Positions 40,986 through 59,943 are shown, numbered from the stretch's first letter. The stretch is DNA of 59,943 nt from an uncultured Gammaproteobacteria bacterium (GCA_964396145.1 CAYNEE010000002.1:1-59943); one strand, 5' to 3'. Numbers and translations are program-made. The notes: generated by a model from the letters alone, not told the origin.

Positions 40986-40995
40986 AATAACTCCT

Positions 40996-41262: not shown

Positions 41263-41271
41263 CTGCTTTTT

Positions 41272-43191: not shown

Positions 43192-43200
43192 GTTTTTATT

Positions 43201-43416: not shown

Positions 43417-43426
43417 CTATACCATT

Positions 43427-43684: not shown

Positions 43685-43686
43685 AT

Positions 43687-44253
43687 TTATTTATTTTCTT
43701 CAGTTGCCGGGCTTTCCTCAACGGCCGGAGATTCCTCAGTCGCTGGACTTTCTTCAGCAGTCACTGCAGGCGCCGGAGCCTCGGTTGTTTCCGTCTCTAA
43801 ACCAATATCATCGGGGATGACAATGTCTTCAATTGCCCCGTTATTTAAATCTAAATTAGGTTCACTAGCGGCTACTTCTTCACCATCTTTCGGGTGATTC
43901 ATCCCCATGCCCATACCTTTATTATCCAAAACAATCATGTCTTCGATAACAATTTCCGATACTTGCTTTTGAACACCGGTAGAATCAGTAATTTCTCTAT
44001 ATTGAATCCGGCCTTCAACATAAACCCGGCGACCCTTGGACAATAATTGAGAACACAGCTCAGCTAATTTGTTCCAAGCCACGATTCGGTGAAATTGAGC
44101 ATCTTCTTTCTTTTCACCTTGTTTGGTTACCCAAACCCGATTAGTAGCAACCCCAAAAGAGGCTACTGCCATTCCTCCTGGGGTGTATCTTAACTCCGGA
44201 TCCCGAGTTAAGTTACCAATTAACATAACTTTATTCAGACAACGACTAGGCAT
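43687..44253 (-). CDS. ssb: Single-stranded DNA-binding protein with a repetitive acidic tail and no canonical D-D-D-I-P-F tip
   Basis: OB fold: NKVMLIGNLTRDPELRYTPGG...FHRIVAWNKLAE. The tail ends EESPATEESPAVEESPATEENK. Confidence 0.9.
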   Translation of the reverse strand: MPSRCLNKVMLIGNLTRDPELRYTPGGMAVASFGVATNRVWVTKQGEKKEDAQFHRIVAWNKLAELCSQLLSKGRRVYVEGRIQYREITDSTGVQKQVSEIVIEDMIVLDNKGMGMGMNHPKDGEEVAASEPNLDLNNGAIEDIVIPDDIGLETETTEAPAPAVTAEESPATEESPAVEESPATEENK

Positions 44254-44271
44254 AATTCTTCCTTCCTTACT

Positions 44272-44571
44272 TTAAATTTTTAAAATTAAATGACGAATAA
44301 TATTTTTTTCTCGGTTAAGAAACAGGGTAAATTCCTTTGACTTAACCGCTGCTTTACCACCAACATAAAACACCCAAAAAACCCCCTTTTCCTGACCAGC
44401 TATAGGATAGGCTAGGGTTTTAGTACCTAAATCTTCCCTTTTTTCCAATTCATAACCCAACTTAGTAATCTCTTCTTCAATTAGCTTGAGAGTTTTTTCT
44501 TTTTCTTTCGACTCGGCTTTGGGGTTGAGTACCACCACTACCTCGTAACGGTAATTTAGACTGTCTTTCAT
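44272..44571 (-). CDS. rpsF: Ribosomal protein S6
   Basis: 99 aa with YEVVVVLNP at the start. It sits in the canonical rpsF-ssb-rpsR order. Confidence 0.8.
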   Translation of the reverse strand: MKDSLNYRYEVVVVLNPKAESKEKEKTLKLIEEEITKLGYELEKREDLGTKTLAYPIAGQEKGVFWVFYVGGKAAVKSKEFTLFLNREKNIIRHLILKI

Positions 44572-44577
44572 CGAAGT

Positions 44578-45942
44578 TTAGCTTAACATGATTTTTTTAA
44601 TTTTACAATCATCTTTCGTATCTTCCACTAAATATCCCCTTTTATTAATCTCTTCTCTCAACCTATCTGACTCTACCCAATTTTTATTTCTCTTCGCTTC
44701 ATTTCTCTCCTCAGCCATTTTGATTATTTCCTCAGGAATTTCTTCTGTTTTTGTCTCTGAAAGCTTTAACCCTAAAATTTTATCCAGTTCGAGCAGTGTT
44801 GCTTTAATATCTTCTTTTTTATAGTCTCCTTTTATCATTTTCCAAATTACCGCCACCGCCTCCGGAGTCGATAGATCATCTTCCATTTTTTCCAAAAATT
44901 CCGCCCTTATTTCCTCTATTACCTCTCCTTCTCCGCTCACTTGAGCTGCCTTTTTTAATTTTGTTACTGCCTGTTCGGCTACCCCCAAATTCCTAAAATT
45001 AAAATCCAAGCCCTGCTTGTAATTAGAACTTAAAATTAAATATCTCAAAGCCATTGGCTCATAACCTTTATCCTTTATATCAGTTGCCAAAACAATATTC
45101 CCAAGACTCTTAGACATCTTAGCTCCTTCAAAAGTCAACCAACCGTTGTGGAGCCAGTAATTGGCAGTCTGATGACCAAAAGCTCCGTATCCCTGGGCAA
45201 TTTCATTGGTATGATGTACCCCGATATGCTCTTTTCCACCGGTATGAATATCAAATTTATTACCAAGATATTTAGTTGACATAGCCGTACATTCGAGATG
45301 CCACCCTGGAAAACCCTCTCCCCAAGGGCTCGGCCATTTCATAATATGATTAGGCTGATTGGTTACCCACAACAAAAAATCCCAAGGTTTCTTCTTTTCC
45401 TCATCCACCTCAACACGCGCTCCTGCCTCCATTTCCGCAAGTTTTAAATTGGCAAAACTGGAATACTCGGGAAATTTTGATGTATCAAAAACCAGACCTG
45501 TTTTTGTTTTATAAGTAAAACCTCTCTCTTCTATTTTCTTAGCCAAATTAATTTGTTCATCAATATGTTCCGTCGCCCGGCACAATACATCAGGCATTGA
45601 AATATTCAAAATTTTTAAGCTTTCCAAAAACTGAGCTTCATATTTTTTGGCTACTTCCCAAACACTCAAACCTTCTCTTTTGGCCCCTTTTTCCATTTTG
45701 TCCTCTCCACTATCCTCATCTGAAGTCATATGCCCGACATCAGTTATGTTCATTATCCAAGTAACTTTATACCCTAAATATCGGAATAATCTCACTAAAG
45801 TATCCCACTGCACATAGGCATACATATGACCGATATGCTGATTCCAATAGACTGTCGGACCACAGGAATAAATTCCAATTTCTCTATCTTTAATCGGCAC
45901 TAATTCTTCTTTCTTTCGACTCAGGGTGTTATAAACTTTCAT
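44578..45942 (-). CDS. cysS: Cysteinyl-tRNA synthetase
   Basis: HIGH motif (HIGHMYAY), KMSKS, and the Zn-binding Cys context. Confidence 0.9.
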   Translation of the reverse strand: MKVYNTLSRKKEELVPIKDREIGIYSCGPTVYWNQHIGHMYAYVQWDTLVRLFRYLGYKVTWIMNITDVGHMTSDEDSGEDKMEKGAKREGLSVWEVAKKYEAQFLESLKILNISMPDVLCRATEHIDEQINLAKKIEERGFTYKTKTGLVFDTSKFPEYSSFANLKLAEMEAGARVEVDEEKKKPWDFLLWVTNQPNHIMKWPSPWGEGFPGWHLECTAMSTKYLGNKFDIHTGGKEHIGVHHTNEIAQGYGAFGHQTANYWLHNGWLTFEGAKMSKSLGNIVLATDIKDKGYEPMALRYLILSSNYKQGLDFNFRNLGVAEQAVTKLKKAAQVSGEGEVIEEIRAEFLEKMEDDLSTPEAVAVIWKMIKGDYKKEDIKATLLELDKILGLKLSETKTEEIPEEIIKMAEERNEAKRNKNWVESDRLREEINKRGYLVEDTKDDCKIKKIMLS

Positions 45943-45944
45943 TT

Positions 45945-46442
45945 CTAGTCTATTTTACCACCCTTAAACTCACTCGTTTGTGACATCTGTGTGGGATCTG
46001 GTGCCTGCTTTTTCCTCTTTCCTGGCGCAAACTGAGTTTTAGCCGCCTCTCTTTTAACATTACCTGGTTCTTCCAATAATTCTTCCCTCTCTCTTACCTC
46101 AGCCTCCCTTTGTAGTCTAATCTTTTCCAAAAATTCCTCTTCTTCCCTCTTTTCTTTTTCTTGTTTCTGGTTTCTGATTTCTTGCAGCTCTTCTTCTAAT
46201 TTTCTCCCTTGACTTGCCGCAACTTTTCGGAGACGGTCCATCTCTTCTTGTTTCTCTACTTCTTCGCTTTTTTCCATTTTACCCATCTCTGCTTCATCTA
46301 TTTTCTTAATACCTCCCAACAACTCTTGGCCGCTAATAACACTCTGGCCTATGTTTACGGTCTCTTTAACTCCAGTTTCCGCCGTCTCCTGACTAATTTC
46401 CCCCAAACCCTTCATTATTCCCTTTATTATTGAATCTGTCAT
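45945..46442 (-). CDS. Hypothetical highly charged coiled-coil protein
   Basis: 165 aa, rich in E, K and R. Confidence 0.4.
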   Translation of the reverse strand: MTDSIIKGIMKGLGEISQETAETGVKETVNIGQSVISGQELLGGIKKIDEAEMGKMEKSEEVEKQEEMDRLRKVAASQGRKLEEELQEIRNQKQEKEKREEEEFLEKIRLQREAEVREREELLEEPGNVKREAAKTQFAPGKRKKQAPDPTQMSQTSEFKGGKID

Positions 46443-46482
46443 TTATCTATTTTATCTTATTCTGGTTTCTAGTTTCTCGTTT

Positions 46483-47088
46483 CTATATCTCCCTCCTGCC
46501 TTCAAAGGCTCGAGCAAGCGTCACCTGATCAGCAAAACCAAGCTCAGCCCCCATTGGCAAACCACTACCTATCCGGCTAATTTTGCCCTTAAAACCACCC
46601 TCCTCTAACTTTTTTTTAACGTAAAGCGCTGTCCCCTCTCCTTCAATCGTTGGGTTTGTTGCCAAAATTATCTCTTCTACTTCATTTTTTCCAACTCTTA
46701 AAATCAGTTCATTGATTTTTAGGTCATCCGGACCAATATGATCCAACGGATTAATCGCTCCTCCTAGAACGTGGTACAAACCCTTAAAGCTACCCACCGC
46801 TTCAATTGCCAAAACCTCATCAGCTCTTTCCACTACACATAGAAGCTTCTTCTCCCGAGTACTATCACTACAAATTTCGCACAATTCCCCCTCCCCAACC
46901 CCAAAACACTCCCGGCAGATTTTTATTCTTTTTTTTAAATTTTTTATAGCCTCGCCCATACTCTCCGTCATCGTTTCCGGCACAGATAAAAGATAAAATG
47001 CCAATCTCTGGGCACTTTTCGGCCCAATCCCCGGCAATCTTTCAAAACTGTCCACCACCTCCTGCATGGCCGCCGGTATCTTCTTCAT
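46483..47088 (-). CDS. recR: Recombination protein RecR
   Basis: HhH motif LPGIGPKSAQRLAF, a C4 zinc finger and a Toprim domain. Confidence 0.9.
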   Translation of the reverse strand: MKKIPAAMQEVVDSFERLPGIGPKSAQRLAFYLLSVPETMTESMGEAIKNLKKRIKICRECFGVGEGELCEICSDSTREKKLLCVVERADEVLAIEAVGSFKGLYHVLGGAINPLDHIGPDDLKINELILRVGKNEVEEIILATNPTIEGEGTALYVKKKLEEGGFKGKISRIGSGLPMGAELGFADQVTLARAFEGRREI

Positions 47089-47093
47089 AGTTT

Positions 47094-47345
47094 CTATCTC
47101 ATCAATCCTTCCAAGCCACCCATTTCCTGCATTCTTTTAGCCGCACCTTCTTGTGACTTTTTCATAGCCTTATTAATCACTTCGACGAGCATTTTATTTT
47201 CTTCACCATTAACAGACAAATACTTAACCTTTTGGTCTCCAGAAACCTTAATTAAAATTCCACCTTCTTCAATTTCAGTTATTTCTGACTCTAAAGCTTT
47301 TTTTAATTTAAAAGCCTGGGCTACTAATTTTGCTTTATCAAACAT
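47094..47345 (-). CDS. YbaB/EbfC nucleoid-associated protein (short)
   Basis: 83 aa, in the conserved dnaX-ybaB-recR order. Confidence 0.65.
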   Translation of the reverse strand: MFDKAKLVAQAFKLKKALESEITEIEEGGILIKVSGDQKVKYLSVNGEENKMLVEVINKAMKKSQEGAAKRMQEMGGLEGLMR

Positions 47346-47378
47346 ATTTATAAAAAATATTAACTCTTAATTTTAACA

Positions 47379-48845
47379 TTAACCAAAAATTTCCTTGGCC
47401 ACATCTTCTATCGCCATTTCTTTTTTATTTTCTCGCTTTGCCTCGCCAGAGTCCCTCTCCGACAGAATGGAGGCAGGTTTTTTGTCCGCCAATACACACC
47501 TAAACCCCAACTTTCTCCCAAACACCTTGTCTAAACCTATTTCCACTATTTGTCTGTGTTTCACCTCTTCCAGCTTATCTTTATGAAATTTATAAAATAC
47601 CTCAATTACCAGTTCCCCCTTATCTATTTTTTGAGGTCTAGCCGCTCTCAAAAACGCTTCTACCGAATGGTTGTAGGGCCTAACTGCCAACAACACCTCC
47701 GGCCATTTTATTTCTATCTCATCTATCCTTTTATTCCATTCCTCAGTTTTCTTTTCTGGCCTTTTCTCTTCTATCTCTTTCTCTTTATCTTTTTTTGGTT
47801 GAACTTTGTCATCTAAAGTTTGCTTAGAAATTGTTTTTTGGTTATTGGTTATTTCTATCACTGCCATTTCCAAAGGCAATTGTTCAATCGGCGATATTTT
47901 TTCCCATTCTCCCATCAAAACCAATTTTTCTACAATTTTTTTTACCCCTGAATTATCCAAATCCGTCAACATTTTTTGGTGAAAAAAATTCAACCATTTT
48001 AGTCGAAGCTCTCCAAAATCTACTCCTCTCTGAGCCATTTCTTCCAAGCGGAAAATAATTTTATTGATATCACCAGCCTCTAAATCTTTTTCCAGCTCCT
48101 CCGCCTCATACTCTCCCCTATTTTTAGAAAAATACTCCTCAACCTCTTTTAGTTTTATTTTTTTGCCGTACTCCAAAATTATTTCATTAAAACTTTTTTG
48201 TAAGTTCCTAAAACTGCCGTCTGAATTATTTATAATTATTTTTTTTGCCGGTTCGTCTATTTCAATCTTTTCCCCTTTAATAACTTTATCCAATGACCTT
48301 CCCAACTCTTGCTCTCCTCCTTTCCTGAAATTAACTCTTAAAAGCCTTGATAGTACCGTTTCCGGTATCTTTTGCGGATCAGTCGTACACAAAACAAACA
48401 AGGTCCTCTCCGGAGGCTCTTCTATTAGTTTTAAAAGAGCGTTAAAGGCCTCTTTTGTCAACATGTGCACCTCATCAATGATAAAGACTTTTTTCTGCAG
48501 CCTGACTGGTGCTAAATAAGCATTTTCCTTTAAGGCCCTGACATCATCTATTCCTCTGTTTGAAGCCGCATCAATTTCGATAATATCCAGGCTATTTCCT
48601 TTTTCAATCTCCTGGCAATTACCACACTTTCCGCAAGCCTCTCCCTTTATGGGTTTAAGACAATTCACTGCCTTGGCTAAAATCCGGGCCGCCGAAGTCT
48701 TTCCGGAGCCTTTCGGTCCGACTAAAAGCAATGCCTGAAAAGCACTCTCCTCACTGATTAACTTTTTTATTTTTTCCGATACCTCAGGCAAATCAAGATC
48801 AGTTGTTTTAGTGGGTCGATATTTCAAGTGAAAAACAGCCATCAA
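47379..48845 (-). CDS. dnaX: DNA polymerase III subunit gamma/tau
   Basis: Walker A GPKGSGKTS, a Zn module CGKCGNC, the DEVHML Walker B motif and SRL. Confidence 0.9.
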   Translation of the reverse strand: MMAVFHLKYRPTKTTDLDLPEVSEKIKKLISEESAFQALLLVGPKGSGKTSAARILAKAVNCLKPIKGEACGKCGNCQEIEKGNSLDIIEIDAASNRGIDDVRALKENAYLAPVRLQKKVFIIDEVHMLTKEAFNALLKLIEEPPERTLFVLCTTDPQKIPETVLSRLLRVNFRKGGEQELGRSLDKVIKGEKIEIDEPAKKIIINNSDGSFRNLQKSFNEIILEYGKKIKLKEVEEYFSKNRGEYEAEELEKDLEAGDINKIIFRLEEMAQRGVDFGELRLKWLNFFHQKMLTDLDNSGVKKIVEKLVLMGEWEKISPIEQLPLEMAVIEITNNQKTISKQTLDDKVQPKKDKEKEIEEKRPEKKTEEWNKRIDEIEIKWPEVLLAVRPYNHSVEAFLRAARPQKIDKGELVIEVFYKFHKDKLEEVKHRQIVEIGLDKVFGRKLGFRCVLADKKPASILSERDSGEAKRENKKEMAIEDVAKEIFG

Positions 48846-48856
48846 CCCATTCTAGC

Positions 48857-49219
48857 TTATTTTAAAAGATTTTCTAGCCCGTGTTTAATCCACTCTGATA
48901 AAATTTCCGATTCTTTCTTCAGTAGAAATTTACATTCATATTTTAGCTTGGGTGTACAGATGACAATATCTCCCAATCTTAGCCAACCGTCGCTATCTAC
49001 CTTTCTATTTAGGGGAAAACCCAACACCTGGGGAATATATTTTTTCTGTCTGTATTTAATATTTAAATCTTTAGCTTTTTTAGTCCCGACAAAATAAAGA
49101 CTCAGTTCAGTCGCCTCCTTAAAACCAAAAAAATTCAACCATTTCAAGCTGTATTTGATTACCTCCCCTTCTGATAACCCCCAGTTTTTAGGATGTTTTA
49201 TTAAAACCCTGTTTTTCAT
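48857..49219 (-). CDS. YbeY-like protein truncated before the zinc-binding His triad
   Basis: LNIKYRQKKYIPQVLGFPL and LGDIVIC resemble the YbeY core. The protein stops at ...EWIKHGLENLLK, where YbeY normally has H-G-x-L-H-L-x-G-Y-D-H. Confidence 0.5.
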   Translation of the reverse strand: MKNRVLIKHPKNWGLSEGEVIKYSLKWLNFFGFKEATELSLYFVGTKKAKDLNIKYRQKKYIPQVLGFPLNRKVDSDGWLRLGDIVICTPKLKYECKFLLKKESEILSEWIKHGLENLLK

Positions 49220-49650
49220 TGAGCCAATTCTTCTTTGACTATTTTGGAAACCAATTCTCCTCCGGCCTGACCGGCGACTGCTTTCATACTTTCCCCCATG
49301 ACTGCACCAAAATTGTTGCCTTTTTCGGCAACTATTTTTTTGACTATTTCTCTTAATTTTGTCTCATCCATTTCCTGAGGCAAATAGCTTTTAACCAACT
49401 CAATTTCCTCTTCCTGCTCTTTGACTAAATCTTGCCGACCACCCTTGGCAAACATTGTCTTAGCCTCTTCCTTGTTTTTAAGCTCTTTTCGAAGTACGTT
49501 AATTTCCTCTGCTTCACTCATCTCACCTGGAGGTAACTGCAGTGCCCTTTTGTCAATCAAAGACACCAAAAACCTCAGGGCGTTTGCCTTTTTGCCATTA
49601 CCTGATTTTAACGCTTCAACTGCTTGATTTTTGATTTGATCACACAACAT
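49216..49650 (-). CDS. GatB/YqeY domain protein
   Basis: 144 aa. The pattern ALRFLVSLI...LRKELKNKEEAKTMFAKGGRQDLVKEQEEEIELVKSYLP is typical of YqeY. Confidence 0.7.
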   Translation of the reverse strand: MLCDQIKNQAVEALKSGNGKKANALRFLVSLIDKRALQLPPGEMSEAEEINVLRKELKNKEEAKTMFAKGGRQDLVKEQEEEIELVKSYLPQEMDETKLREIVKKIVAEKGNNFGAVMGESMKAVAGQAGGELVSKIVKEELAQ

Positions 49651-49855
49651 ATTTTCGGGATTTTTTAGCTCTCTTGCGACACCTTTCTCTCCACAAGATT
49701 ACTTTTTTTTGAGCATAACGGACTTCTGATGGTTTTTCATAAGCCGCCCTTTTACGGACTTCTTCTGTAATATCCTCCTCCATGCACAGCCGTCGGAATT
49801 TACCGATAATATCATCTTTAGTTTCGCCTTTTTTTCTTTTGACAATTATGGGCAT
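49640..49855 (-). CDS. rpsU: Ribosomal protein S21
   Basis: MPIIVKRKKGE...FRR...YEKPSEVR. A strong SD (AAGGAGGTG) lies upstream. Confidence 0.8.
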   Translation of the reverse strand: MPIIVKRKKGETKDDIIGKFRRLCMEEDITEEVRKRAAYEKPSEVRYAQKKVILWRERCRKRAKKSRKYVV

Positions 49856-49892
49856 CAAATCACCTCCTTAAACTCTGCTATTTTACCTGTCT

Positions 49893-50564
49893 TTACTGAC
49901 TTTGTAAACACTTGGCTCTATCAAGACTATTGACTACCCCATCATTGTTTAAATCTCCAGGAGACACACACTTTACCGTTGGTATCGGAGTCGTCGCCGT
50001 TCCTCCCTGACCCTTTTGACAGAACATATAGTCCAAGCTATTAACCACTCCATCCTTATTATAATCAGTACTCCGGTCACAAACTCCAGCAGCCCCTGTC
50101 GGCCTAATCCCCACCGATGAGGTAGGTGTGGGAGCTGTTGTTATCACAGGTAAGACAGTCCCTGAAGGTGTCGCTCCTTTAGTTTTAAAAGAATATGGAA
50201 TCCCATTATTATCAAATTGCTCCTCACCTATCTTGATCCTAAAATAATAGTTAGTATTAGCCTTTAGGGAACTTAAAGTTACTGAATGATTGGTCACCGC
50301 CTCACTTTCAGGTGCTCTCAACAATAAACTTGCTGGAGTGGTCCCGTATTCCACCACCCCCATATTGGCTTTGTCAGATACCCAAGTAATCACTGCACTC
50401 TTACCGTCTTCACCAGCTTTAGCCAGCACATTCTTAGGTTCCGTAGCTGCAGAAGCTCCACTAAAAAAAGTTTTGGCAGTTGTCATGCCTACAACCCCCA
50501 ATACTCCCACCAAAAGCATAATCACAATGATAATGATCGTTTTTACAGTCGGTTTCTTGGTCAT
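49893..50564 (-). CDS. Surface protein: signal anchor, Fn3/PAP_N-like domain, PT linker and a two-repeat dockerin-like module
   Basis: VITWVSDKANMGVVEYG...TNYYFRIK, then DYNKDGVVNSLD and DLNNDGVVNSLD. Both repeats fit the DxNxDGxxNxxD Ca-binding loops of dockerins. Confidence 0.65.
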   Translation of the reverse strand: MTKKPTVKTIIIIVIMLLVGVLGVVGMTTAKTFFSGASAATEPKNVLAKAGEDGKSAVITWVSDKANMGVVEYGTTPASLLLRAPESEAVTNHSVTLSSLKANTNYYFRIKIGEEQFDNNGIPYSFKTKGATPSGTVLPVITTAPTPTSSVGIRPTGAAGVCDRSTDYNKDGVVNSLDYMFCQKGQGGTATTPIPTVKCVSPGDLNNDGVVNSLDRAKCLQSQ

Positions 50565-51223
50565 AACCTTCTCAAAGCTAGTGAAGATAATACCCCGATT
50601 ACACCCATAACCATCAACACAATTGTATTTTCTACTGTTCCAGTTTTAGGCAATTCTCCGGCTGGTGGAGCGGTAGTTACCTGTGCCTGTGGAGCTGTTG
50701 TCCCGTCATTTGCCACAATATTATATAGTCCATTCTGATTACTGCTACACACAATTAAATCTTGAAGACTCGTTTCGTTCCAAATATTTGAATCCTTACT
50801 CTCCCCAGGTGTACAGCTAAAATTGGCAGGAGCACTACCTAGCGCCTTGGCCTTAAAAGTCAACACAGCTAAATCACCATTCAGAGGCGTCATCTCGTAA
50901 GTAATTGAATCACGAGGTCCAAAATTAGTTGCAAATTTACCAGCCACATTATCTATTTGTACATCTCCCATAGAAAAATCAAATGCCGGACTAGGAGCCT
51001 TGTCTAAAGAAATAAGCTCTAATCTAGTATTATCAAAAGTACCCCAAGTATCCACCATTTGTGACTTGTTACCTCCAGAATCCACGGCAATCATCACTTT
51101 AAAAGTATCCCCTATCTTGTAGGTTCCTGCACTGGGCACAAACTTTAAAACCGCATTAGCAGCTAAAACCTTGTTAGCTGGAAAGAGAAATAAAACTAAT
51201 AATATTGCTAGTATCCTTTTCAT
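50561..51223 (-). CDS. Cohesin-like domain protein with a C-terminal LPXTG sortase anchor
   Basis: Signal peptide ...NKVLA, then AVLKFVPSAGTYKIGDTFKVMIAVDS...FDNTRLELISL...GDLAVLTFKAKALGSAPANF (cohesin-like pattern). The C-terminus is LPKTG, a hydrophobic stretch, then RRL. Confidence 0.55.
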   Translation of the reverse strand: MKRILAILLVLFLFPANKVLAANAVLKFVPSAGTYKIGDTFKVMIAVDSGGNKSQMVDTWGTFDNTRLELISLDKAPSPAFDFSMGDVQIDNVAGKFATNFGPRDSITYEMTPLNGDLAVLTFKAKALGSAPANFSCTPGESKDSNIWNETSLQDLIVCSSNQNGLYNIVANDGTTAPQAQVTTAPPAGELPKTGTVENTIVLMVMGVIGVLSSLALRRL

Positions 51224-51762
51224 TTACTTAAATAAGGTAACACTTTTGCACTGCTGTTTTCAACCAAATTAGTTTTGGAGTCAATTGAAAGACTTGCTTC
51301 AGGTGACAACGGTTTTATGTCAAACTCCACAATCCCAATTTCCTTGTTAGCTGTTAATTTATAACCATCCTTTTCCACAATCAAATAATTGGCTACTATC
51401 AAAAATTTGTCACGACTATCTTTTATAAAAGCCGGAGCCGGTAAAACCCCCGCATTTTTAAGATTACTAATTTCCATACCCTTGTAATTTACATAAAGAT
51501 CAATTGCCCCTAAAGATTGGTCATTTTTAGAAACTAACATTAAGACTCTATGATTTCCCTGTTCTTTCCAATAAAAACTGATGTCAGCCTCTGAAATTGG
51601 GGTTACAGTACCTATTGTCTCTTTCTCAACCATAGTCGGAGTCGTGTTTACAACTTCTAGACTTTGGTTATTTTTATTAGTTCTGGATAAAAATATAACG
51701 CTTTCTACTATGACTACAATCGATATTAATACAATCGGCCAAAATAATTTATTGTTTTTCAT
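51220..51762 (-). CDS. Membrane-anchored hypothetical protein (possibly a second cohesin-like beta-sandwich)
   Basis: N-terminal TM helix, then LGAIDLYVNYKGMEISNL...IGIVEFDIKPLSPEASLSI. A 4-nt overlap links it to the downstream gene. Confidence 0.4.
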   Translation of the reverse strand: MKNNKLFWPIVLISIVVIVESVIFLSRTNKNNQSLEVVNTTPTMVEKETIGTVTPISEADISFYWKEQGNHRVLMLVSKNDQSLGAIDLYVNYKGMEISNLKNAGVLPAPAFIKDSRDKFLIVANYLIVEKDGYKLTANKEIGIVEFDIKPLSPEASLSIDSKTNLVENSSAKVLPYLSK

Positions 51763-51766
51763 AAAT

Positions 51767-52933
51767 TTAATATAATTGTCCTTGCTTTTTAGCCAAGGTC
51801 AGCCTTAATAAATTAACATCATTAGTATTTACCTGGCAGTTTCCGTCCAAATCACCTTTTAGATTCTGTCCATCAGCCACTGTAACCAATTTAGCTGATT
51901 GATTCTTTACATAGATAAAGTCAATTCCGTTTACTTCTCCGTCCTGTTCCTCACTATCCTTACCTACCACATCTCCAGGCAAAATCGGATAGTCCGTAAA
52001 ATCATACCAAGGGCTGGTAGCGGGGTCATTAGTCATGGTAATTTCACCTGTATACTTACCCGCCGCCTCACTTTGTTTATTTTTATAATATTTCATTTGT
52101 AAGTGTTTACTCCCTTTAAAGAGTGCTGACACACTATCAGTGTAAGCAAAATCTTTAAGTGGCACACTACCCTTAAACACTACCCTGTCTTCTTTATCAA
52201 TCACTTCTTGAGGAATTATGTTGTTATAAGCTTTCCTGTTCTGATCACCGTGCTGAACTATAAGCTGCAAAGGCCAGTCAACTAAACACTTATGGTCATT
52301 GGGTCTAATCCCATAATAACTAACCATGTAATTCAAAACTGGGTCTCCAGTGGGAACTACCACACCATCAGTAATCTCATACTCACCATTACCGGTAATG
52401 TTCCCATCTAAAAGTTTTTCAGCACTTCCTGGAGCATAAATAGTTCCCCTAGAATCCTCTTTAACCAGGGTTATTGCCCTGGGACCACCTTTTTTAACCG
52501 CATCAAAATTCAAAGTTATGGCCTGACCTGCATCCTTAAGATTGGCCGTACAAGTCGTCGCTGTATCATCGGCTACCACTGTTACAAAAGTACAAGTTAA
52601 ACCTGCACTATTAGTCGGTAATGTCTTACTTAAAGCCACACTTCTGAAACCATTGGCCGTAACCCCAGTTGCGCCCTTAAAAACAATCTCTGGACCATAA
52701 CAAACTTTCGTTTGTACGGTTTCTACCTTGGAATTAGCAGGTCCTGAATAGCTAATCACATAACTTAATTTTTCACCAACCTTTTTAGTTATCCGTGTTC
52801 CTGGCGAAATAAACAAATTCAATACACCGGCCGCCGCTCCTTTTCTCACATCCTGGTTTTGCTTAACCAAAAGTAAACCACCCCCGACTGCTGTCAGTAA
52901 TAAAAGTGTTAATATGATTTTCCCTACTTTCAT
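51767..52933 (-). CDS. Surface protein with a single C-terminal dockerin-like repeat
   Basis: The start is taken at MKVGKIILTLLLLTAVGG. The C-terminus carries DLDGNCQVNTNDVNLLRL. Confidence 0.55.
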   Translation of the reverse strand: MKVGKIILTLLLLTAVGGGLLLVKQNQDVRKGAAAGVLNLFISPGTRITKKVGEKLSYVISYSGPANSKVETVQTKVCYGPEIVFKGATGVTANGFRSVALSKTLPTNSAGLTCTFVTVVADDTATTCTANLKDAGQAITLNFDAVKKGGPRAITLVKEDSRGTIYAPGSAEKLLDGNITGNGEYEITDGVVVPTGDPVLNYMVSYYGIRPNDHKCLVDWPLQLIVQHGDQNRKAYNNIIPQEVIDKEDRVVFKGSVPLKDFAYTDSVSALFKGSKHLQMKYYKNKQSEAAGKYTGEITMTNDPATSPWYDFTDYPILPGDVVGKDSEEQDGEVNGIDFIYVKNQSAKLVTVADGQNLKGDLDGNCQVNTNDVNLLRLTLAKKQGQLY

Positions 52934-52937
52934 TATC

Positions 52938-54254
52938 TTATTTAAACATAGTAATATAATTATTTTTCCAAATTTCATAGTCGGCCATAGTGACCAATCC
53001 GTCACAATTGAAATCAGCTTTCCAGTTGTTCCTGGTACTGGGATCAGTACCACACTTGGCTACATTAAACTCATCTCTCCAAATGGAATAATCCATCAAA
53101 TCAACCGAACCACTACAGTTAGCATCACCCTTACCCTTAGCCGTAGCATCAGAACACTGAGTACATTTAGAAGTCGCTGTACACTTAGTTAAATCTGTAG
53201 TCCAATTTCCTCCAACAGCCGGACAGCAATAATCTCTGCCTCCGCAAGCCATTTTCATACCTGCCGCAGTACATAAAGTATCCTGAGGTGTTCCGTCGGA
53301 ATCGGGAGGAGTACAATTTCTAAGCTTGTTACCATTATTTGGATCAGGACAGGCTTGAGCCCCAGGACATTTATCAGATACCGGAGGCTTAGATGGAGGT
53401 TGAGTCACCACAATCGGCGGATTTGCCGGTTTACAGATTCCGCTTGAACAATTTTTACTATTACATTGAGTATTGTTAGTACACTTACAATTATCCGGTC
53501 TATTGGTCAATAAACTACAGTTCTCTATACATTGAGGGTAAGCCAAACCCTCATCGGTACAAGTCAAACCAGAACAGCAAGACCGAGTCGAACAAGGCTT
53601 ACCACTACCAGCACAAACCACCGGTGTCGGTGTCGGAATAGGGATATAAGTTGGAATTTCAGTTCTAGGCACACACCGAGGATACGATAAACCCTCATCA
53701 GTACATACATCAGTCGACAAACAACACGATCTAGTGGAACATGCCTGACCAGATTTCGCACAAGGAATCGGAGTCGGAGTTGCTGGCCGAGGAGTATTGG
53801 TTGGTACAGCCGTTGGCCTTATTCCGCACCTATTATCACCACAATAGCCGCTAGCACACAAACTGTGTCCATTACAGTAACAACCATTAGGTCTACCGGT
53901 CGCCCTGCCACAAGGATCAACAGGTAAATTAGCACAAACACCATCTCCGCAATACCCGCTACAACAATTAGAATTGTTACTACACCCAGAACCATTATTC
54001 CTACACCGAGGAGTGGTTGGAATACTTGTAGGAACTCTGGTAGGTGCTACTCCTCCACATCTTCCTCCATTACATATTCCCGAACAACACTCACCATTAT
54101 ATCTACAAGAATGATTCGCTGGACCACATCCACCAGCCGCCTGATTTCTACTATCCTGATTCTCTTGAACTAATTTCGTGGCTACTGGAATCGCAATAGC
54201 CATTACCAACAAACCTAAAATCAAGGGAATTTGAGCTAAACCTTTTCTTTTCAT
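52938..54254 (-). CDS. Membrane-anchored protein with multiple cysteine-knot-like modules separated by PT linkers and a C-terminal two-repeat dockerin-like module
   Basis: The start is taken at MKRKGLAQIPLILGLLVMAIAI. Modules include CGPANHSCRYNGECCSGICNGGRC and CRNNGSGCSNNSNCCSGYCGDGVC. The C-terminus has DANCSGSVDLMD and DFNCDGLVTMAD. Confidence 0.65.
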   Translation of the reverse strand: MKRKGLAQIPLILGLLVMAIAIPVATKLVQENQDSRNQAAGGCGPANHSCRYNGECCSGICNGGRCGGVAPTRVPTSIPTTPRCRNNGSGCSNNSNCCSGYCGDGVCANLPVDPCGRATGRPNGCYCNGHSLCASGYCGDNRCGIRPTAVPTNTPRPATPTPIPCAKSGQACSTRSCCLSTDVCTDEGLSYPRCVPRTEIPTYIPIPTPTPVVCAGSGKPCSTRSCCSGLTCTDEGLAYPQCIENCSLLTNRPDNCKCTNNTQCNSKNCSSGICKPANPPIVVTQPPSKPPVSDKCPGAQACPDPNNGNKLRNCTPPDSDGTPQDTLCTAAGMKMACGGRDYCCPAVGGNWTTDLTKCTATSKCTQCSDATAKGKGDANCSGSVDLMDYSIWRDEFNVAKCGTDPSTRNNWKADFNCDGLVTMADYEIWKNNYITMFK

Positions 54255-54324
54255 TGTTCTAATTTCAACTATTTCTGCTTTCAGTTTTACATGTTTACCA
54301 TACCAGGTCAATAGATCAAATTCA

Positions 54325-54342
54325 TATACTATATATAGTATA
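54325..54342. promoter_or_regulatory. Perfect 18-bp palindrome TATACTATATATAGTATA in the divergent promoter region
   Basis: It lies between the divergent starts at 54254 (minus strand) and 54359 (plus strand). The two 9-nt halves are exact reverse complements. Confidence 0.35.
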
Positions 54343-54358
54343 CTGTTTTTAAAGACTC

Positions 54359-55690
54359 ATGAAATCAAAAAGTACCAAGACCCTCATCCTCCTTCTCCTT
54401 CTCCCCTTTCTACTTTTTGCTCTTAAAACTATTCTCGACATCCGCAAATCAGCCTCAGGTGTTCCCGCCAATATCATCATCAACACTCAATCTTTAGGCA
54501 CAAATATAAACGGAAGTCTCTGGAAAAATCTGGCCCAAGGTGGTGAAGAAGCCAAAGACATGATTGGCCCCGTCGCTACTAAACTCCAATCTCTCCAGCT
54601 CCAATTAATCCGTATTGATCATCTTTTTGATTATTACCAGGTTGATCAGGGCAATGGCCAATACGATTTTTCTCGACTTGACCAAGCTGTCAATAGTATT
54701 TTAGCGACAGGCGCCAAACCCATGCTGTCTTTATCCTACACCCCCGATTCCAAGGAACCCGGTGATTGGAACCAGTGGAATCGCTTAATTGAGGCTACTG
54801 CCCGACATTATTCAGTTGAAAAAAATATCTCCGGAATTTATTACGAAGTTTGGAACGAACCCGATCTCTTTGGTGGCTGGCACTATGGCCGTTCTCCCAA
54901 CTATCTCACTCTCTATAAAAATACCTCTTTGGCTGTAAAAAGAGGAGCTGGAAATAGTTCCTATAAAATAGGCGGTCCGGCTATTACTGCCTACTACAAT
55001 AATTGGATTAAAGCTCTCTTTAAATTTGCCGCCGCCAATAATTTACCTCTGGATTTTATTTCCTGGCATAAATATTCTTTTAATTCTGATGATTATGTCC
55101 GTGATTTTGAAAATTTAAATTCAATTCTTGCCGACTACCCTCAATATTTTAATATTGAAAGGTTAATTACCGAGCTTGGCCCCAATTCCGAACCCGACTC
55201 TGCTTACGACAACTCTCTTAGTGGCATTCATCTCATTTCTCTCTCTACTAAACTTTATGGAAAAATCCATCGCATTTTTACTTTTGAAGCTGTCGATGGA
55301 CCCTCTGCCCGCTCAGATAAATCCACAGGTTGGGGAATTCTTTCCCACAGTGGTCAAATTAAACCTCGTTACCAGGCTCTTCAGTTTCTCAACCAAATTA
55401 GCGGCACTCAATTAGCCCACGAAGGCGACGGTACTTGGGTTACTTCTCTCTCTTCCAAAAAAAGCACTACTATCCAAACTCTTCTCGTCAACTACGACCC
55501 TAAACTCAGCCACATCGAAACCACCCCCATTACTTATCAAGGTTTAACTCCAGGCAAATATCTCTTAAAAACCAGCCAATATTTAGGCAATAATAATCAA
55601 AAAATTATCGATGTAATCAGTGATCACTACACCGAAAACATTTATCTTAACCCCAACACTGCTTATTTTCTTGAGCTAACTAAAAACTAG
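54359..55690 (+). CDS. Membrane-anchored clan GH-A glycoside hydrolase (GH39/GH5-like)
   Basis: N-terminal TM helix, YYEVWNEPDLFGGW (NEP acid/base motif), and later RLITELGPN (candidate nucleophile Glu). Confidence 0.55.
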   Translation: MKSKSTKTLILLLLLPFLLFALKTILDIRKSASGVPANIIINTQSLGTNINGSLWKNLAQGGEEAKDMIGPVATKLQSLQLQLIRIDHLFDYYQVDQGNGQYDFSRLDQAVNSILATGAKPMLSLSYTPDSKEPGDWNQWNRLIEATARHYSVEKNISGIYYEVWNEPDLFGGWHYGRSPNYLTLYKNTSLAVKRGAGNSSYKIGGPAITAYYNNWIKALFKFAAANNLPLDFISWHKYSFNSDDYVRDFENLNSILADYPQYFNIERLITELGPNSEPDSAYDNSLSGIHLISLSTKLYGKIHRIFTFEAVDGPSARSDKSTGWGILSHSGQIKPRYQALQFLNQISGTQLAHEGDGTWVTSLSSKKSTTIQTLLVNYDPKLSHIETTPITYQGLTPGKYLLKTSQYLGNNNQKIIDVISDHYTENIYLNPNTAYFLELTKN

Positions 55691-56754
55691 TTACCAATAA
55701 CTAATTTTCTAACATCGCCAATCGTTACTAACAAAATTAGCGCCAGCAAGATTACCATTCCGATATTATTAACCATAATCTCAAACTTTTCGTTAGCTCT
55801 CTTTCTGGCAATCAATTCATAAAGCACAAAAATGATTCTTCCTCCGTCCAAAGCCGGAAAAGGTAAAATATTTACAATCGCCAAATTAACCGAAATAATT
55901 CCAAAAAAGTGAATTACCGCCCAAATCCCCTGCCCGCTTCTAATTGCCGAGGTCGCCTTGTACATTCCTAAAGGTCCGGCCACATCTTTTGGCACCTCAC
56001 CTCTAAACAACCCAGTTATCATCTGTCCCAAACCTCCAGCTATCAATTTACCCCAATAAATTGCCTCCTTAAAACCAGCTCCAATCCCTTTGTAAAACTC
56101 AAACCATTTTATTTTTTTGATTTCTACACTTGACACCACTACTCCCATTAATCCCTGTCCTTCCGGCGCACTTTCTCTGATTTCAACCTCTACCAACCGG
56201 TCCCGACCAATCCCTTCTTCAATCATTAATTCAATTTTTTCACCTTTATGCTCGCCCACTTTTGTGGTTAAATCCTCACCTTTTGCCAGTTCTATATTTG
56301 CAAACTTTTTAATCACCTGATCTTTTTTCAAACCAGCTTTTTCCGCCGGACTGTCAGCCACTACTTCAAGTATCTTCACTCTTCCACTCTCCTCTGGAAT
56401 TCCGGTTACTGTATAGCTGATAGAAAAAATCAACACCGCGAACACCACATTCATCAATACCCCTCCCAAAACAATCAGCATCTTTTGCCAGGGATTTTTA
56501 GTTAAAAATGATTCTTTTGACTTTTTTACTTTTTTTTCGGAAGAATCCTCACCATAAAGTTTACAAAACCCACCGATAGGAAGCCAATTTAGACTCCATA
56601 TTGTCCCCCACTTTTTTTTGCCTATAATCCGTGGTGGCAACCCTAGTCCAAATTCTTCTACTTTTACTCCGCTTAATTTCGCTGCTAAAAAATGACCAAA
56701 TTCATGAACTAAAACCAAAACCGATAAGGCAATCACAAAAATCAAAATATCCAT
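55687..56754 (-). CDS. rseP: Site-2 (M50) zinc metalloprotease RseP/RasP type with a PDZ domain
   Basis: HEFGHFLAAK (HExxH), a PDZ segment, and NILPFPALDGGR. Confidence 0.85.
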   Translation of the reverse strand: MDILIFVIALSVLVLVHEFGHFLAAKLSGVKVEEFGLGLPPRIIGKKKWGTIWSLNWLPIGGFCKLYGEDSSEKKVKKSKESFLTKNPWQKMLIVLGGVLMNVVFAVLIFSISYTVTGIPEESGRVKILEVVADSPAEKAGLKKDQVIKKFANIELAKGEDLTTKVGEHKGEKIELMIEEGIGRDRLVEVEIRESAPEGQGLMGVVVSSVEIKKIKWFEFYKGIGAGFKEAIYWGKLIAGGLGQMITGLFRGEVPKDVAGPLGMYKATSAIRSGQGIWAVIHFFGIISVNLAIVNILPFPALDGGRIIFVLYELIARKRANEKFEIMVNNIGMVILLALILLVTIGDVRKLVIGN

Positions 56755-56757
56755 AGC

Positions 56758-57309
56758 CTAAGCCCGAATCTCCTCTTCTTTTTTCTTTGCTATCTCTTCC
56801 ATTTTACTCATAAACTCATCAGTAGTTTTTTGCAACTCTGTTTCATCTCTTTTAAACTCATCCTCAGAAATAGTTTTGTCATTTTTAGCATCCATAATTT
56901 TTTTTCGAAAATCAGCTCTTGCATCCCTCAACATCCCTCGAGCCCCTTCAAGTTTTCGACCCAAGAGTTTTATATAATCTTCCCTCTGTTCTACTGTTAG
57001 CATCGGCAAACTCAATCTAATCAGTTCTCCGTCAACTACCGGCATCATCCCAATGTTAGCTGCTTGAATCCCATTATTGATCTCTCTTAATACTGTTTTG
57101 TCCCAGGGTTCAAACACCAAACTCCTAACATCCGGTACAGAAATAGATCCTAATTCCATTAGTCTCATTTTCTGACCGTTGTAAACCTCCACGATAACAT
57201 TTTCTATTAAAGCTGCTGTCGCTCTCCCGGTTCTAATCGAGGCAATGTCTTCAGAAAAAATTCCCAAAATTTTTTCCATTCTTTCTTTGACTTCTGCAAA
57301 ATTGATCAT
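56758..57309 (-). CDS. frr: Ribosome recycling factor
   Basis: 183 aa, with a length and sequence pattern typical of Frr. It lies downstream of tsf. Confidence 0.9.
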   Translation of the reverse strand: MINFAEVKERMEKILGIFSEDIASIRTGRATAALIENVIVEVYNGQKMRLMELGSISVPDVRSLVFEPWDKTVLREINNGIQAANIGMMPVVDGELIRLSLPMLTVEQREDYIKLLGRKLEGARGMLRDARADFRKKIMDAKNDKTISEDEFKRDETELQKTTDEFMSKMEEIAKKKEEEIRA

Positions 57310-57339
57310 GAACTATTTTAGCAAAAAATACCCGCCGAC

Positions 57340-57798
57340 TTATATTTCAAATCTTTCAAACCGCCCTAGTTTTATATTTTCTCCAAACTTAGAATTCAGC
57401 GCCACTACCAGATCGTTCATTTTTAGACTTGGATCTTTAACGAATTCCTGCTCCAAAAGCTCCTTGCTGTTTTTTGGGGACATGGCTGCAATTTGTAGAC
57501 AAAAATCCTTAGCTACTGCCATGAATTCCTCATTTTTAGCCACAAAATCAGTTTCGCATAGCAGCTCAACCATCACCCCTATTTTACCGGTACTATGAGT
57601 ATAAGTTGCCACCATCCCTTGGTGGGTTTCCTTTTCGGCTCGCTTTTCAGCCTTGGCAAAACCTTGTTTTTTCAAAATTTCTTTAGCCTTAGCTTCATCA
57701 CCATTAACTTCTTCCAAAGCCGCTTTTATTTCCATAATTCCTAGACCCGTTTCGGCTCTCATTTTTTTAACTAATTCGATTATTTTTTTATTATCCAT
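57340..57798 (-). CDS. tsf: Elongation factor Ts (short form)
   Basis: UBA-like N-terminus (LVKKMRAETGLGIMEIKAALEE) and the TDFVAKNEEF motif. It is only 152 aa. Confidence 0.8.
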   Translation of the reverse strand: MDNKKIIELVKKMRAETGLGIMEIKAALEEVNGDEAKAKEILKKQGFAKAEKRAEKETHQGMVATYTHSTGKIGVMVELLCETDFVAKNEEFMAVAKDFCLQIAAMSPKNSKELLEQEFVKDPSLKMNDLVVALNSKFGENIKLGRFERFEI

Positions 57799-57823
57799 TT
57801 TTTATTTACTAATAACTAATTAT

Positions 57824-58723
57824 CTATTTAACTCCTGCCGCCTTAATGGCTCTGCCAATTTCCTCCACTATTACGGTAATACTTTTAACATTGTCATCAT
57901 TGGTGGGAATTGGAAAATGGACTTTTTCCGGATTAGAATCTGTGTCCACCATAGCTACCACTTTCAGACCGGATTCTACTGCCTCTTTAACTGCAGTTTT
58001 TTCAAATCCAGCATCTACTACCACCAACACTTCAAAAAGTTTGTCCAATTTAGTTAAGCCACCCACCATTTTTTCCAGACGGGATTTTTCCTTGTTTAAA
58101 ATTGACAAATCTCTCTTACTGACCTGAGCATATTGGCCGCCTTCGCTTAAGCCAGCATTCAGGTCATTTAATTTTTTAATATTTTTCTTAATTTCATTCC
58201 AGTTTGAGATAGTCCCCCCAACCCAACGATCAGTAATATAGGGTACTCCGGCATCCAAAGCCACCCTTCTCACCACTTCCTTGGCCTGTCTTTTAGTTCC
58301 TAAAAGTGCAATTTGTTTGCCATTTCTTTTGGCGTTATATACAAAATTACAAGCTTTTTCCAGGGTCTCAAAACTTTTATTCAAATCAAATAGCTGTATC
58401 CCCTCTCTAGCCTGAAATAAATATTCTTTAATTTTAGGATTGGTTTTAGATACTTTATGGCCGAGGTGACTACCAGCCTTAAGCAAATCCTGGACCTCAA
58501 TCGTCAGATTATACTTTTTATCTTCTTTTTTAACTTTTTGCTTATTGTCTGGTTTATCATTTCCAACCTCTAGTTTCTCAATTTTATTTTCTATTTTCTT
58601 TTTCAGTTTTTCGTTTGACTCTTTAATCCTGTTTTTATCAGTATTTTTAGCTTTTTTAGCCTTAACTACCAATGCTTTTTTAACGAGGCTCTTGCCTGTT
58701 CTGTTGACTGTTTTTGTTTTCAT
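57824..58723 (-). CDS. rpsB: Ribosomal protein S2 with a ~75-aa Lys-rich N-terminal extension
   Basis: The S2 core LLKAGSHLGHKVSKTNPKIKEYLF begins about 80 residues into the ORF. No in-frame ATG lies nearer to the core. Confidence 0.85.
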   Translation of the reverse strand: MKTKTVNRTGKSLVKKALVVKAKKAKNTDKNRIKESNEKLKKKIENKIEKLEVGNDKPDNKQKVKKEDKKYNLTIEVQDLLKAGSHLGHKVSKTNPKIKEYLFQAREGIQLFDLNKSFETLEKACNFVYNAKRNGKQIALLGTKRQAKEVVRRVALDAGVPYITDRWVGGTISNWNEIKKNIKKLNDLNAGLSEGGQYAQVSKRDLSILNKEKSRLEKMVGGLTKLDKLFEVLVVVDAGFEKTAVKEAVESGLKVVAMVDTDSNPEKVHFPIPTNDDNVKSITVIVEEIGRAIKAAGVK

Positions 58724-58857
58724 AGTTTTTATTGTATCTTGCCGTAGTTCAGCGAATGATTAATGAGCTGAACGAAGGCAGATTGCTTTTAGGGTATTTT
58801 TTAACCCAAAACTAACTTTTAATCCTCAAATTATACCATACCACTTAAAGCATCTTT

Positions 58858-58913
58858 ACACGTTTCGCCCGTAACCATGGGTCTCATCAGCCCCGCAGTG
58901 GCGGGGGACGTGC
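58858..58913 (-). ncRNA. Hammerhead ribozyme, type III topology (stem III open)
   Basis: The minus strand reads GCACGUC-CCCCGC-CACU-GCGGGG-CUGAUGA-GACCC-AUGGUUAC-GGGC-GAA-ACGUGU. It has the GUC cleavage site, the CUGAUGA and GAA cores, a closed 6-bp stem I, a closed stem II with the G10.1:C11.1 pair, and a 6-bp stem III. Confidence 0.75.
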
Positions 58914-58914
58914 T

Positions 58915-58965
58915 GATCCGGGAGGAAATTTCTTAGCTTAAGCTAAAATTTTTCCTCTCCGGATC
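58915..58965 (-). other. 51-nt near-perfect RNA hairpin immediately 5' of the hammerhead
   Basis: GATCCGG(A)GAGGAAA...TTTCCTCCCGGATC forms the outer stem (14 bp with one bulge). An inner TTAGC-TTAA-GCTAA stem follows. There is no U-tract after it. Confidence 0.7.
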
Positions 58966-59020
58966 TGTTCCAGAATTAACTCATGGAACTATTTCGGTAT
59001 TCTCTTTCCCAAATTGGCCT

Positions 59021-59943
59021 CTAGGGTAGCCACTCGGGTTTAGAAGGTAACGACATTAAATGTCCAGCTTGATTGTTTGGATCTTTTACAAACCAAGCCA
59101 AGGCATATCTAAACGTTTTATCGTAATTAGTATCTGTTTTGTCCAGAAGCCAATACCGATCAACCATAAAATATGCCGCTTCTACATCGTTTTGTCCGAT
59201 TTCCATCTTAATTATCTCGCCGAGTTTCTCATCTTTGAGAGTATAAAGCACTGGTATCGAACAAGCCGGGCCATGATAATCACCACCTGCTGTTGAAGGT
59301 ATTCCCCATTTACTTACATTTTGAATGAACTCCTTATAAGTTAAATTATCCGGAGCATCATCAGTAACCCAATACCATTTATGGTAATGAGGCCACATTC
59401 GGATGTAAGTCAGTGAGTATTTTCCCTGAACATTGTCATTGACATTATTAGTGTTATACACCTGATTATTGGCCACTATCCGGGTACTTTTATTCATACA
59501 AGCAACCACTAAATAGGTACTGCCAACAGGTGCTTCACAACCACCGCCTTCAGCCGGTCGACATTGTTCCGCTCCAGTGACCATGGCTATACATTGACCA
59601 TCTTCAGGAACATCTTCCCGTCGAGCACCTTCGCAAGAATTCTCCTCACAAACTGCCTTCAAATCCACGGGTGTCTTTGTTGGTTGTGGTGTTGGAGTTG
59701 GAACTTGCGGAGTCGGTGTCGGAGGCGTAGGAGTCGAGGGTGTTGGAGTTGGCGGAGTCGGTGTCGGAGGCGTAGGAGTCGAGGGTGTTGGAGTAATATT
59801 CCGACTTTCAGTTTCCGTTGTCTCTGAACAGACTTGTTGGTTGTACTTGTCTTTGACAGTAACTGTTCGAGTGCGGATTTCCTTTGACGAATCGCTGGGA
59901 TCTACACTCCAGGCTGACCATTCACCATAGAAGGTTTCTGTGT
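59021..59943 (-). CDS. Surface protein, partial (N-terminus beyond the right window edge), with a Pro/Thr tandem-repeat linker and a Cys-containing C-terminal domain
   Basis: The frame stays open upstream of the track's internal Met at 59668, through PTPTPSTPTPPTPTP repeats to the window end. Confidence 0.7.
   Translation of the reverse strand, partial: TETFYGEWSAWSVDPSDSSKEIRTRTVTVKDKYNQQVCSETTETESRNITPTPSTPTPPTPTPPTPTPSTPTPPTPTPQVPTPTPQPTKTPVDLKAVCEENSCEGARREDVPEDGQCIAMVTGAEQCRPAEGGGCEAPVGSTYLVVACMNKSTRIVANNQVYNTNNVNDNVQGKYSLTYIRMWPHYHKWYWVTDDAPDNLTYKEFIQNVSKWGIPSTAGGDYHGPACSIPVLYTLKDEKLGEIIKMEIGQNDVEAAYFMVDRYWLLDKTDTNYDKTFRYALAWFVKDPNNQAGHLMSLPSKPEWLP
59707..59794. repeat. 45-bp tandem repeat (about 2 units) encoding the PT-rich linker
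   Basis: gcggagtcggtgtcggaggcgtaggagtcgagggtgttggagttg at 59707-59751 is repeated from 59752. Confidence 0.85.

Follow-up and report, generated by a model that had tools for sequence, protein, structure and literature searches.

A candidate type III hammerhead ribozyme behind an orphan gene and next to the rpsB operon in a Candidatus Shapirobacteria genome

The stretch of DNA analysed here (GCA_964396145.1 CAYNEE010000002.1:1-59943; 59,943 nucleotides, referred to below as the window) is listed under an uncultured Gammaproteobacteria bacterium and carries, close to its far end, a 56-nt motif with every part of a type III hammerhead ribozyme (58858–58913, minus strand). The motif lies between the 3' part of an orphan open reading frame (ORF) and rpsB, which is followed downstream on the minus strand by tsf, frr and an M50 protease gene. 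The reading that we favour, with moderate confidence, is that this is a type III hammerhead of the kind common in phages and mobile DNA, placed as the final element in the orphan gene's 3' untranslated region, beside the rpsB operon. That the motif is a genuine hammerhead-family sequence, whatever its role, is held with high confidence. An earlier reading made from the DNA alone (the sequence-only reading) had described the ribozyme as co-oriented with both flanking genes and the genome as resembling the Candidate Phyla Radiation (CPR); all three elements are indeed on the minus strand, and the genome is that of a member of Candidatus Shapirobacteria, with rpsB relatives at 59–86% identity in ribosomal protein S2.

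The ribozyme class is well known and the element an ordinary representative of it; what is mildly new is the host lineage and the association, in phages, of such ribozymes with an abutting hairpin. A full-text literature search returned no paper linking hammerheads with CPR or Patescibacteria, and if the candidate is active it would apparently be the first hammerhead noted in a CPR/Patescibacteria genome.

The hammerhead motif and its counterparts in phages

Read directly in the 5' to 3' direction of the minus strand, the motif begins with the 5' strand of stem III (GCACGU, positions 16.6–16.1; 58908–58913), followed by C17 at 58907, 3' of which cleavage is predicted. Stem I (58891–58906) is a hairpin in which CCCCGC and GCGGGG enclose the 4-nt loop CACU, all six of its pairs being G:C or C:G, and it leads into the catalytic core C3-U4-G5-A6-U7-G8-A9 (CUGAUGA; 58884–58890). 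Stem II (58867–58883) consists of the pair G10.1:C11.1, an unpaired A, three C:G pairs (CCC with GGG) and the 8-nt loop AUGGUUAC. The core residues G12-A13-A14 (58864–58866) come next, and the motif closes with the 3' strand of stem III, ACGUGU (15.1–15.6, A15.1 first; 58858–58863). Stem III comprises 6 bp, including one G-U pair, with pair probabilities of 0.66–0.998. The invariant core, the GAA and the GUC triplet are thus all present, with a non-G residue (C17) after U16.1, and three helices surround the core, of which stems I and II are closed by loops and stem III is open. A mispair directly beside the core (N1.1-N2.1, N10.1-N11.1 or A15.1-U16.1) was a rejection criterion of Perreault et al. 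2011 (PMC3088659); the candidate avoids it, the pairs C1.1:G2.1, G10.1:C11.1 and A15.1:U16.1 all being formed.

These assignments agree to the base, and in every coordinate, with the sequence-only reading, which had also called the element the only CUGAUGA of the window in such a context and a GC-rich island. Both descriptions hold: among the 16 CUGAUGA sites (37 CUGANGA) on the two strands of the window, one has three stems, and the hammerhead has 66% G+C compared with 34% in the rest of the spacer. No ORF of at least 40 aa overlaps the hammerhead, and a search for repeats and mobile elements showed that no part of the spacer occurs twice in the window.

The frequency with which such a motif would arise by chance was estimated with a deliberately permissive type III descriptor, which asked for 5 bp or more in stem I and at least four pairs in stem II, with one bulge allowed, accepted loops of 3–10 nt and any N7 and H17, and took its component frequencies from the window itself. 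The expectation per window is 4e-5 with a 6-bp stem III and 3e-4 with a stem III of at least 4 bp, and the candidate is the only match. A chance match is very unlikely in one window; by this loose descriptor alone, one is conceivable about once per gigabase.

The Rfam model RF00008 aligns with the candidate over its full extent (positions 1–54) at 26.9 bits, with E = 2.2e-4 for 162 nt against 4227 families, or about 4e-5 when rescaled to one model and the whole window. At gathering thresholds Rfam finds only three tRNAs in the whole window. A search of 401 nt with E up to 10 gives no ribozyme family, the speed filters dropping the hammerhead, and the RF00008 match appears only in an 81-nt search. 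The sequence-only reading had named a cmsearch score below threshold as grounds for rejection, and formally the candidate does fall below it (26.9 versus a gathering score of 48.5 bits), yet this outcome is uninformative. At gathering scores, Rfam returned a single RF00008 match (L088, 52.6 bits) from 20 viral loci that hold 21 well-formed type III hammerheads, and with 20 of the 21 failing, the threshold does not discriminate in this subgroup. A type III hammerhead from a metagenome (L023) scores 36.5 bits with the same model. The type II hammerheads in the same 20 viral loci were readily recovered by RF02276.

The phage ribozymes used for comparison are 59 distinct type III hammerheads judged well formed by the descriptor among the matches listed in a core-only pattern scan of viral contigs, which gave at least 120 loci (L025–L144). 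From 54 of these, a covariance model, R1, was made on which the hammerhead structure was imposed and from which the candidate was excluded. It has one match in the window (58858–58912, minus strand), which covers the full model at 45.2 bits with E 5.5e-9 by a rough calibration. Over 851 kb of other loci, R1 gave 40–64 bits to its seeds, 35–63 bits to non-seeds, among them L023 at 62.9 bits, and its background matches reached about 21 bits at most, with E of about 0.06 or more. The geometry of the candidate also falls within the spread of the phage ribozymes, with modal values for stem I (6 bp) and loop 1 (4 nt) and a stem II region of 17 nt, where the range is 13–20 nt.

Type III hammerheads of bacteria and phages were reportedly described by de la Pena and Garcia-Robles in 2010 and by Jimenez et al. 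in 2011. Those of phages, prophages and bacterial intergenic regions have been surveyed by Perreault et al. 2011 (PMC3088659). The candidate shares with this group an identical catalytic core and a typical geometry, in which stem I has 6 bp and a 4-nt loop while stem II is two pairs shorter. It likewise lies between genes, in the orientation of its neighbours and directly after an ORF that is not conserved and has no assigned function, and it has the abutting 5' hairpin that is often present. It differs in its CPR host, in being a single copy in a window with no phage or integrase gene, in lying directly against the promoter of a core translation operon and in the bulged A after G10.1. With the viroid and satellite type III hammerheads of the RF00008 seed, such as those of sTRSV and PLMVd, it shares fold and topology over the full-length alignment; unlike them, it is encoded in the DNA of a bacterial chromosome rather than belonging to a circular RNA replicon, and it scores 26.9 bits where their gathering score is 48.5.

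The stem II signature G-A-CCC / GGG-C was specified in the pattern used to search metagenomes, and the three loci recovered (L022–L024) carry it for that reason. What the pattern did not prescribe is the remainder of each locus, which in L023 makes up a well-formed type III hammerhead and in L022 and L024 looks type I-like, with a paired stem I. Where stem III would be expected, L022 (about 595–650) and L024 (about 1860–1915) offer no more than ACCGGU, a palindrome of insufficient length for a fold-back, and each has another ACCGGU about 75 nt upstream; they may be variants with a dimeric or long-range stem III. By stem II or stem I sequence, no close relative of the candidate ribozyme was found in viral contigs.

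Stem I folds on itself at -11.2 kcal/mol once the first 23 nt have been transcribed. Rapid cleavage at physiological Mg2+ requires that loops 1 and 2 make a tertiary contact. Stem I of the candidate is 2 bp longer than stem II, and type III hammerheads with this difference are a class that commonly carries a loop-loop pseudoknot (PMC3088659). The complementarity of ACU in loop 1 to GGU in loop 2 could represent such a tertiary contact, though at 3 bp it is not significant.

Several observations weigh against our reading, beginning with the RF00008 score described above. The ACU:GGU pairing would be possible by chance about half the time. Stem II has a single pair beside the core before the bulged A. 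In the nearest-neighbour model the hammerhead fold (-19.7 kcal/mol) lies 2.4 kcal/mol above the minimum free energy of -22.1 kcal/mol, which belongs to a competing fold based on loop 1–loop 2 and C-run–G-run pairing; the hammerhead is the minimum in 53% of the 59 phage ribozymes, and 14% of them are as unfavourable as the candidate. No varying homologous copy was found, the only other copy (L010) being identical, and the candidate therefore has no covariation support. With regard to a phage or mobile-DNA origin, the window, which ends inside the upstream ORF, shows no gene of a phage, an integrase or a mobile element. The orphan gene and the spacer have no match in phage genomes at the DNA or protein level, and the orphan protein gave nothing significant in PHROGs.

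Hairpins 5' of the ribozyme and a possible role at the mRNA 3' end

A 51-nt near-perfect hairpin, already pointed out in the sequence-only reading, ends 1 nt before the hammerhead (58915–58965, minus strand) and is recovered by folding as a domain of -28.6 kcal/mol. A smaller hairpin, GUUCCA...UGGAAC (58967–58989, minus strand), precedes it in the 3' untranslated region of the upstream ORF, the stop codon of which is at 59023–59021. The 151-nt stretch folds at -61.4 kcal/mol, with z = -5.3 relative to shuffled sequences.

The phage ribozymes show the same association. Over the 60 nt 5' of the 59 phage type III hammerheads the mean minimum free energy is -18.2 kcal/mol, compared with -12.1 kcal/mol at control positions taken elsewhere in the same loci (p 6e-10). 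The mean shuffle z is -1.67 upstream of the ribozymes, -0.43 at the control positions (p 9e-7) and -0.12 downstream (p 1e-5 versus upstream). A single hairpin of -12 kcal/mol or lower ends within 3 nt of the ribozyme in 20 of the 59 cases (34%) and in 11% of controls (p 5e-6). Crude ORF calls place the end of a sense ORF (70 aa or longer) no more than 60 nt upstream of the ribozyme in 25 of the 59. The order seen in the window, with stop codon, hairpins and ribozyme in succession, is the arrangement of these phage cases. No description of an association between hairpins and hammerheads was found in the literature searched. The recurrence of hairpin and hammerhead together in phages suggests that such pairs generally serve to form protected 3' ends of mRNAs.

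A scan for intrinsic terminators found no terminator-like site in 58600–59200, and the hairpin is followed by AGCACGUCCCC, with no U-tract; over 40000–59943 such sites are not enriched relative to shuffled sequences. A consensus scan of the spacer found no canonical -35/-10 promoter. Two other identities were considered and dropped: an integron attC site, as no GTTRRRY / RYYYAAC core sites could be seen by eye in the hairpins, and a hairpin-bearing target of a diversity-generating retroelement, as there is no C-type-lectin or FGE-sulfatase domain.

In the mechanism that we propose from this layout, RNA polymerase would leave the orphan ORF, transcribe the two hairpins and then the 56-nt ribozyme, of which stem I would fold first, stem II second and stem III last. 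The ribozyme would then cut itself after C17 (58907). The orphan mRNA would end with the 51-nt hairpin and the eight nucleotides AGCACGUC, carrying a 2',3'-cyclic phosphate, and should resist 3' exonucleases. Read-through RNA, no longer joined to the orphan mRNA, would start at 58906 with a 5'-OH. Most transcription of the rpsB operon would come from its own extended -10 promoter, 20 nt beyond the ribozyme. More broadly, and only tentatively, we suggest that a hairpin followed by a type III hammerhead serves on phage-derived cassettes as a portable mRNA 3'-end and insulator module in place of an intrinsic terminator. Such a module would here shield the essential, autoregulated rpsB operon from transcription out of a newly acquired gene.

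An intrinsic terminator offers a partial parallel, in that a stable hairpin at the gene end would define and protect the mRNA 3' end; the candidate differs from one in lacking a U-tract and in forming its end by RNA self-cleavage rather than by release of the polymerase. RiboJ, attributed to Lou et al. in 2012, is reportedly an engineered insulator that combines the sTRSV hammerhead with a hairpin placed 3' of the ribozyme and protects the downstream product. The candidate would resemble it in uncoupling a transcript from neighbouring sequence by means of a hammerhead and a hairpin; unlike in RiboJ, its hairpin is 5' of the ribozyme and would protect the upstream product. With one ribozyme, an abutting hairpin, no terminator and a defined promoter immediately downstream, the locus is a natural test case for the role of prokaryotic hammerheads. 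If true, the 3'-end module would give these ribozymes, whose function is still called open (PMC6155905), a concrete and testable role.

The orphan gene, strain variation and the origin of the element

The orphan ORF (59021–59943, minus strand) is open to the end of the window, which stops 920 nt into it and leaves its 5' side beyond. Its translation contains a GEWSAWS...C stretch, then a long (S/P)TP-rich linker (Pro/Thr-rich) and then a Cys-rich C-terminal domain. No Pfam family is matched at default thresholds, the TSP1-like WSxWS stretch giving only a weak score (TSP1_spondin, PF19028, E 0.011, below the cut-off), and among 5.8 billion proteins the C-terminal domain matched nothing other than itself. 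The exact products of rpsB and of a 215-aa ORF are absent from the databases queried. Prokaryotic hammerheads are intergenic, flank small non-conserved ORFs and have a persistent link with phages (PMC6155905, PMC3088659), and the orphan nature of the upstream ORF fits this published pattern.

Similarity to the relatives covers the rpsB promoter and breaks off immediately 5' of its -10 box. In the closest relatives (85–86% S2 identity) queA ends 115 nt before rpsB, a spacer too short to hold a hammerhead; in the others, different genes precede rpsB. Neither queA nor the 617-aa neighbour found in relatives is in the window. Judged by this comparison of sequences, the ribozyme belongs to DNA beyond a synteny break, on the side of the orphan gene.

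L010, assembled separately from another sample (SRR25436023), contains the identical sequence, which is therefore not an assembly artefact. Positions 1–850 of L010 match 58404–59253 of the window without a mismatch and the remaining 4227 nt contain 47; two further contigs (L008 and L012) start at the boundary of L010 (58402). L010 was rejected as an independent strain copy on account of this mismatch pattern and of the other contigs breaking at the same point. It is probably a joined path, the ribozyme part of which comes from the same strain as the window, and its pattern points to either a chimeric assembly path or a recent exchange of a segment holding the end of the orphan gene, the ribozyme and the 5' part of rpsB. 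Two Logan contigs from two samples and two strains (L011 and L014; 98.4% and 98.1% identical to the window) both begin at 58827, immediately behind the -10 box. This shared start suggests a branch point in the assembly graph, with co-occurring strains differing in the sequence that precedes the rpsB promoter. The Logan contigs covering the locus, from runs SRR15237810/11 and SRR25435985–SRR25436027, end inside or before the orphan ORF.

The break of both contigs at the same base, the orphan status of the neighbouring ORF and the absence of the hammerhead from every relative examined would all suit a different account, in which the element is a hitch-hiker or relic that came with horizontally acquired, probably phage-derived DNA. 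It may then still cleave, with no role under selection in this host, and its place beside rpsB would be an accident of where the cassette landed. That the roles of prokaryotic hammerheads are generally unresolved (PMC6155905) also favours this account. However, the core and all three stems are intact in a GC-rich 56-mer within a spacer of 34% G+C, and a relic would have to be very recent. The recurrence of hairpin and hammerhead in phages likewise argues for a functional module rather than debris. We regard a hitch-hiker without a host role as unlikely, though it survives best among the alternatives.

More doubtful still is the proposal that the ribozyme is one of two or more flanking the orphan gene, which together would excise a single-gene RNA, perhaps circularised, with the partner beyond the window. 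Clusters of hammerheads around single genes are documented (PMC3088659) and are visible in the phage loci L035, L122, L066 and L132, and the 5' side of the orphan ORF is out of sight. Against this, Rfam, the descriptor and R1 all failed to find a second hammerhead of any quality in the 59.9-kb window, and circular or spliced products from such clusters went undetected by Perreault et al. (PMC3088659). Two of the phage clusters belong to the type of multi-ribozyme array that Perreault et al. 2011 reported: in L035 (163–5185) nine type II hammerheads stand beside a type III, and in L122 (4777–5624) three do so.

The rpsB operon and the least probable explanations

The sequence-only reading had proposed that the ribozyme is a regulatory or processing device of rpsB-tsf-frr, cleavage giving the operon mRNA a structured leader with a 5'-OH. 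The hammerhead is co-oriented with the operon, lies 134 nt upstream of the rpsB start codon and has no terminator between it and the operon, as such a device would have it. However, between the two lies an extended -10 promoter, TGGTATAAT (58830–58838, minus strand), 20 nt downstream of the hammerhead 3' end (58858). Its pattern, T.TG.TATAAT (TGnTATAAT), is invariant in nine aligned Shapirobacteria loci, and the conserved leader starts only after it. With the ribozyme upstream of the operon promoter, normal rpsB transcripts would therefore lack it, and a 5'-OH leader would be found on read-through RNA only. The hammerhead is also absent upstream of rpsB in L001–L006 and L015–L021, whose S2 proteins are 59–86% identical; nine related rpsB loci lack it, several of them having no room for it. 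R1 likewise has no match in the relatives L001–L009 and L015–L017. Given the promoter and leader downstream and the relatives without a hammerhead, the ribozyme does not belong to the usual transcript of rpsB and is not a trait conserved with the operon. A device acting on rpsB is largely refuted by these comparative data, and we consider it very improbable. The part of the earlier proposal that stands is the separation of the upstream transcript from the rpsB operon, which remains the most likely role of the ribozyme; the 5'-OH operon leader would be restricted to read-through RNA.

A chance match to the hammerhead consensus, with neither structure nor activity, would be in keeping with the score under the Rfam gathering threshold, the fold above the minimum free energy and the lack of covariation for this copy, but it is scarcely credible in view of the descriptor expectation (4e-5 to 3e-4 per window), the E value of R1 and the setting of the motif as a GC-rich island, intergenic, in sense orientation and abutted by a hairpin as in the phage examples.

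The structured leader of rpsB (58724–58826, minus strand), which is not part of the ribozyme, was recognised from two alignments and RNAalifold. It is about 100 nt long, with 23 predicted pairs, 5 of which have compensatory changes, and its 5' UAGUUUU pairs with an AAAACUA that abuts the start codon. Promoter and leader are seen upstream of rpsB in the window and in L001, L004, L006, L014 and L015. No Rfam family matches the leader, the best being a chance-level mycoplasma_FSE at 27.6 bits; from its sequence and predicted pairing it looks like an undescribed S2 autoregulatory leader.

The rpsB gene itself (57824–58723, minus strand) encodes ribosomal protein S2, with PF00318 matching residues 80–295 (E 1.6e-65) behind a 79-aa N-terminal extension. 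This extension (58487–58723, minus strand) is Lys-rich and common to the Shapirobacteria relatives, whose proteins have 295–305 aa. The tsf gene (57340–57798, minus strand) encodes a shortened EF-Ts; its 152 aa, a length shared by the relatives, match just the first 76 of 204 positions in the EF-Ts Pfam model.

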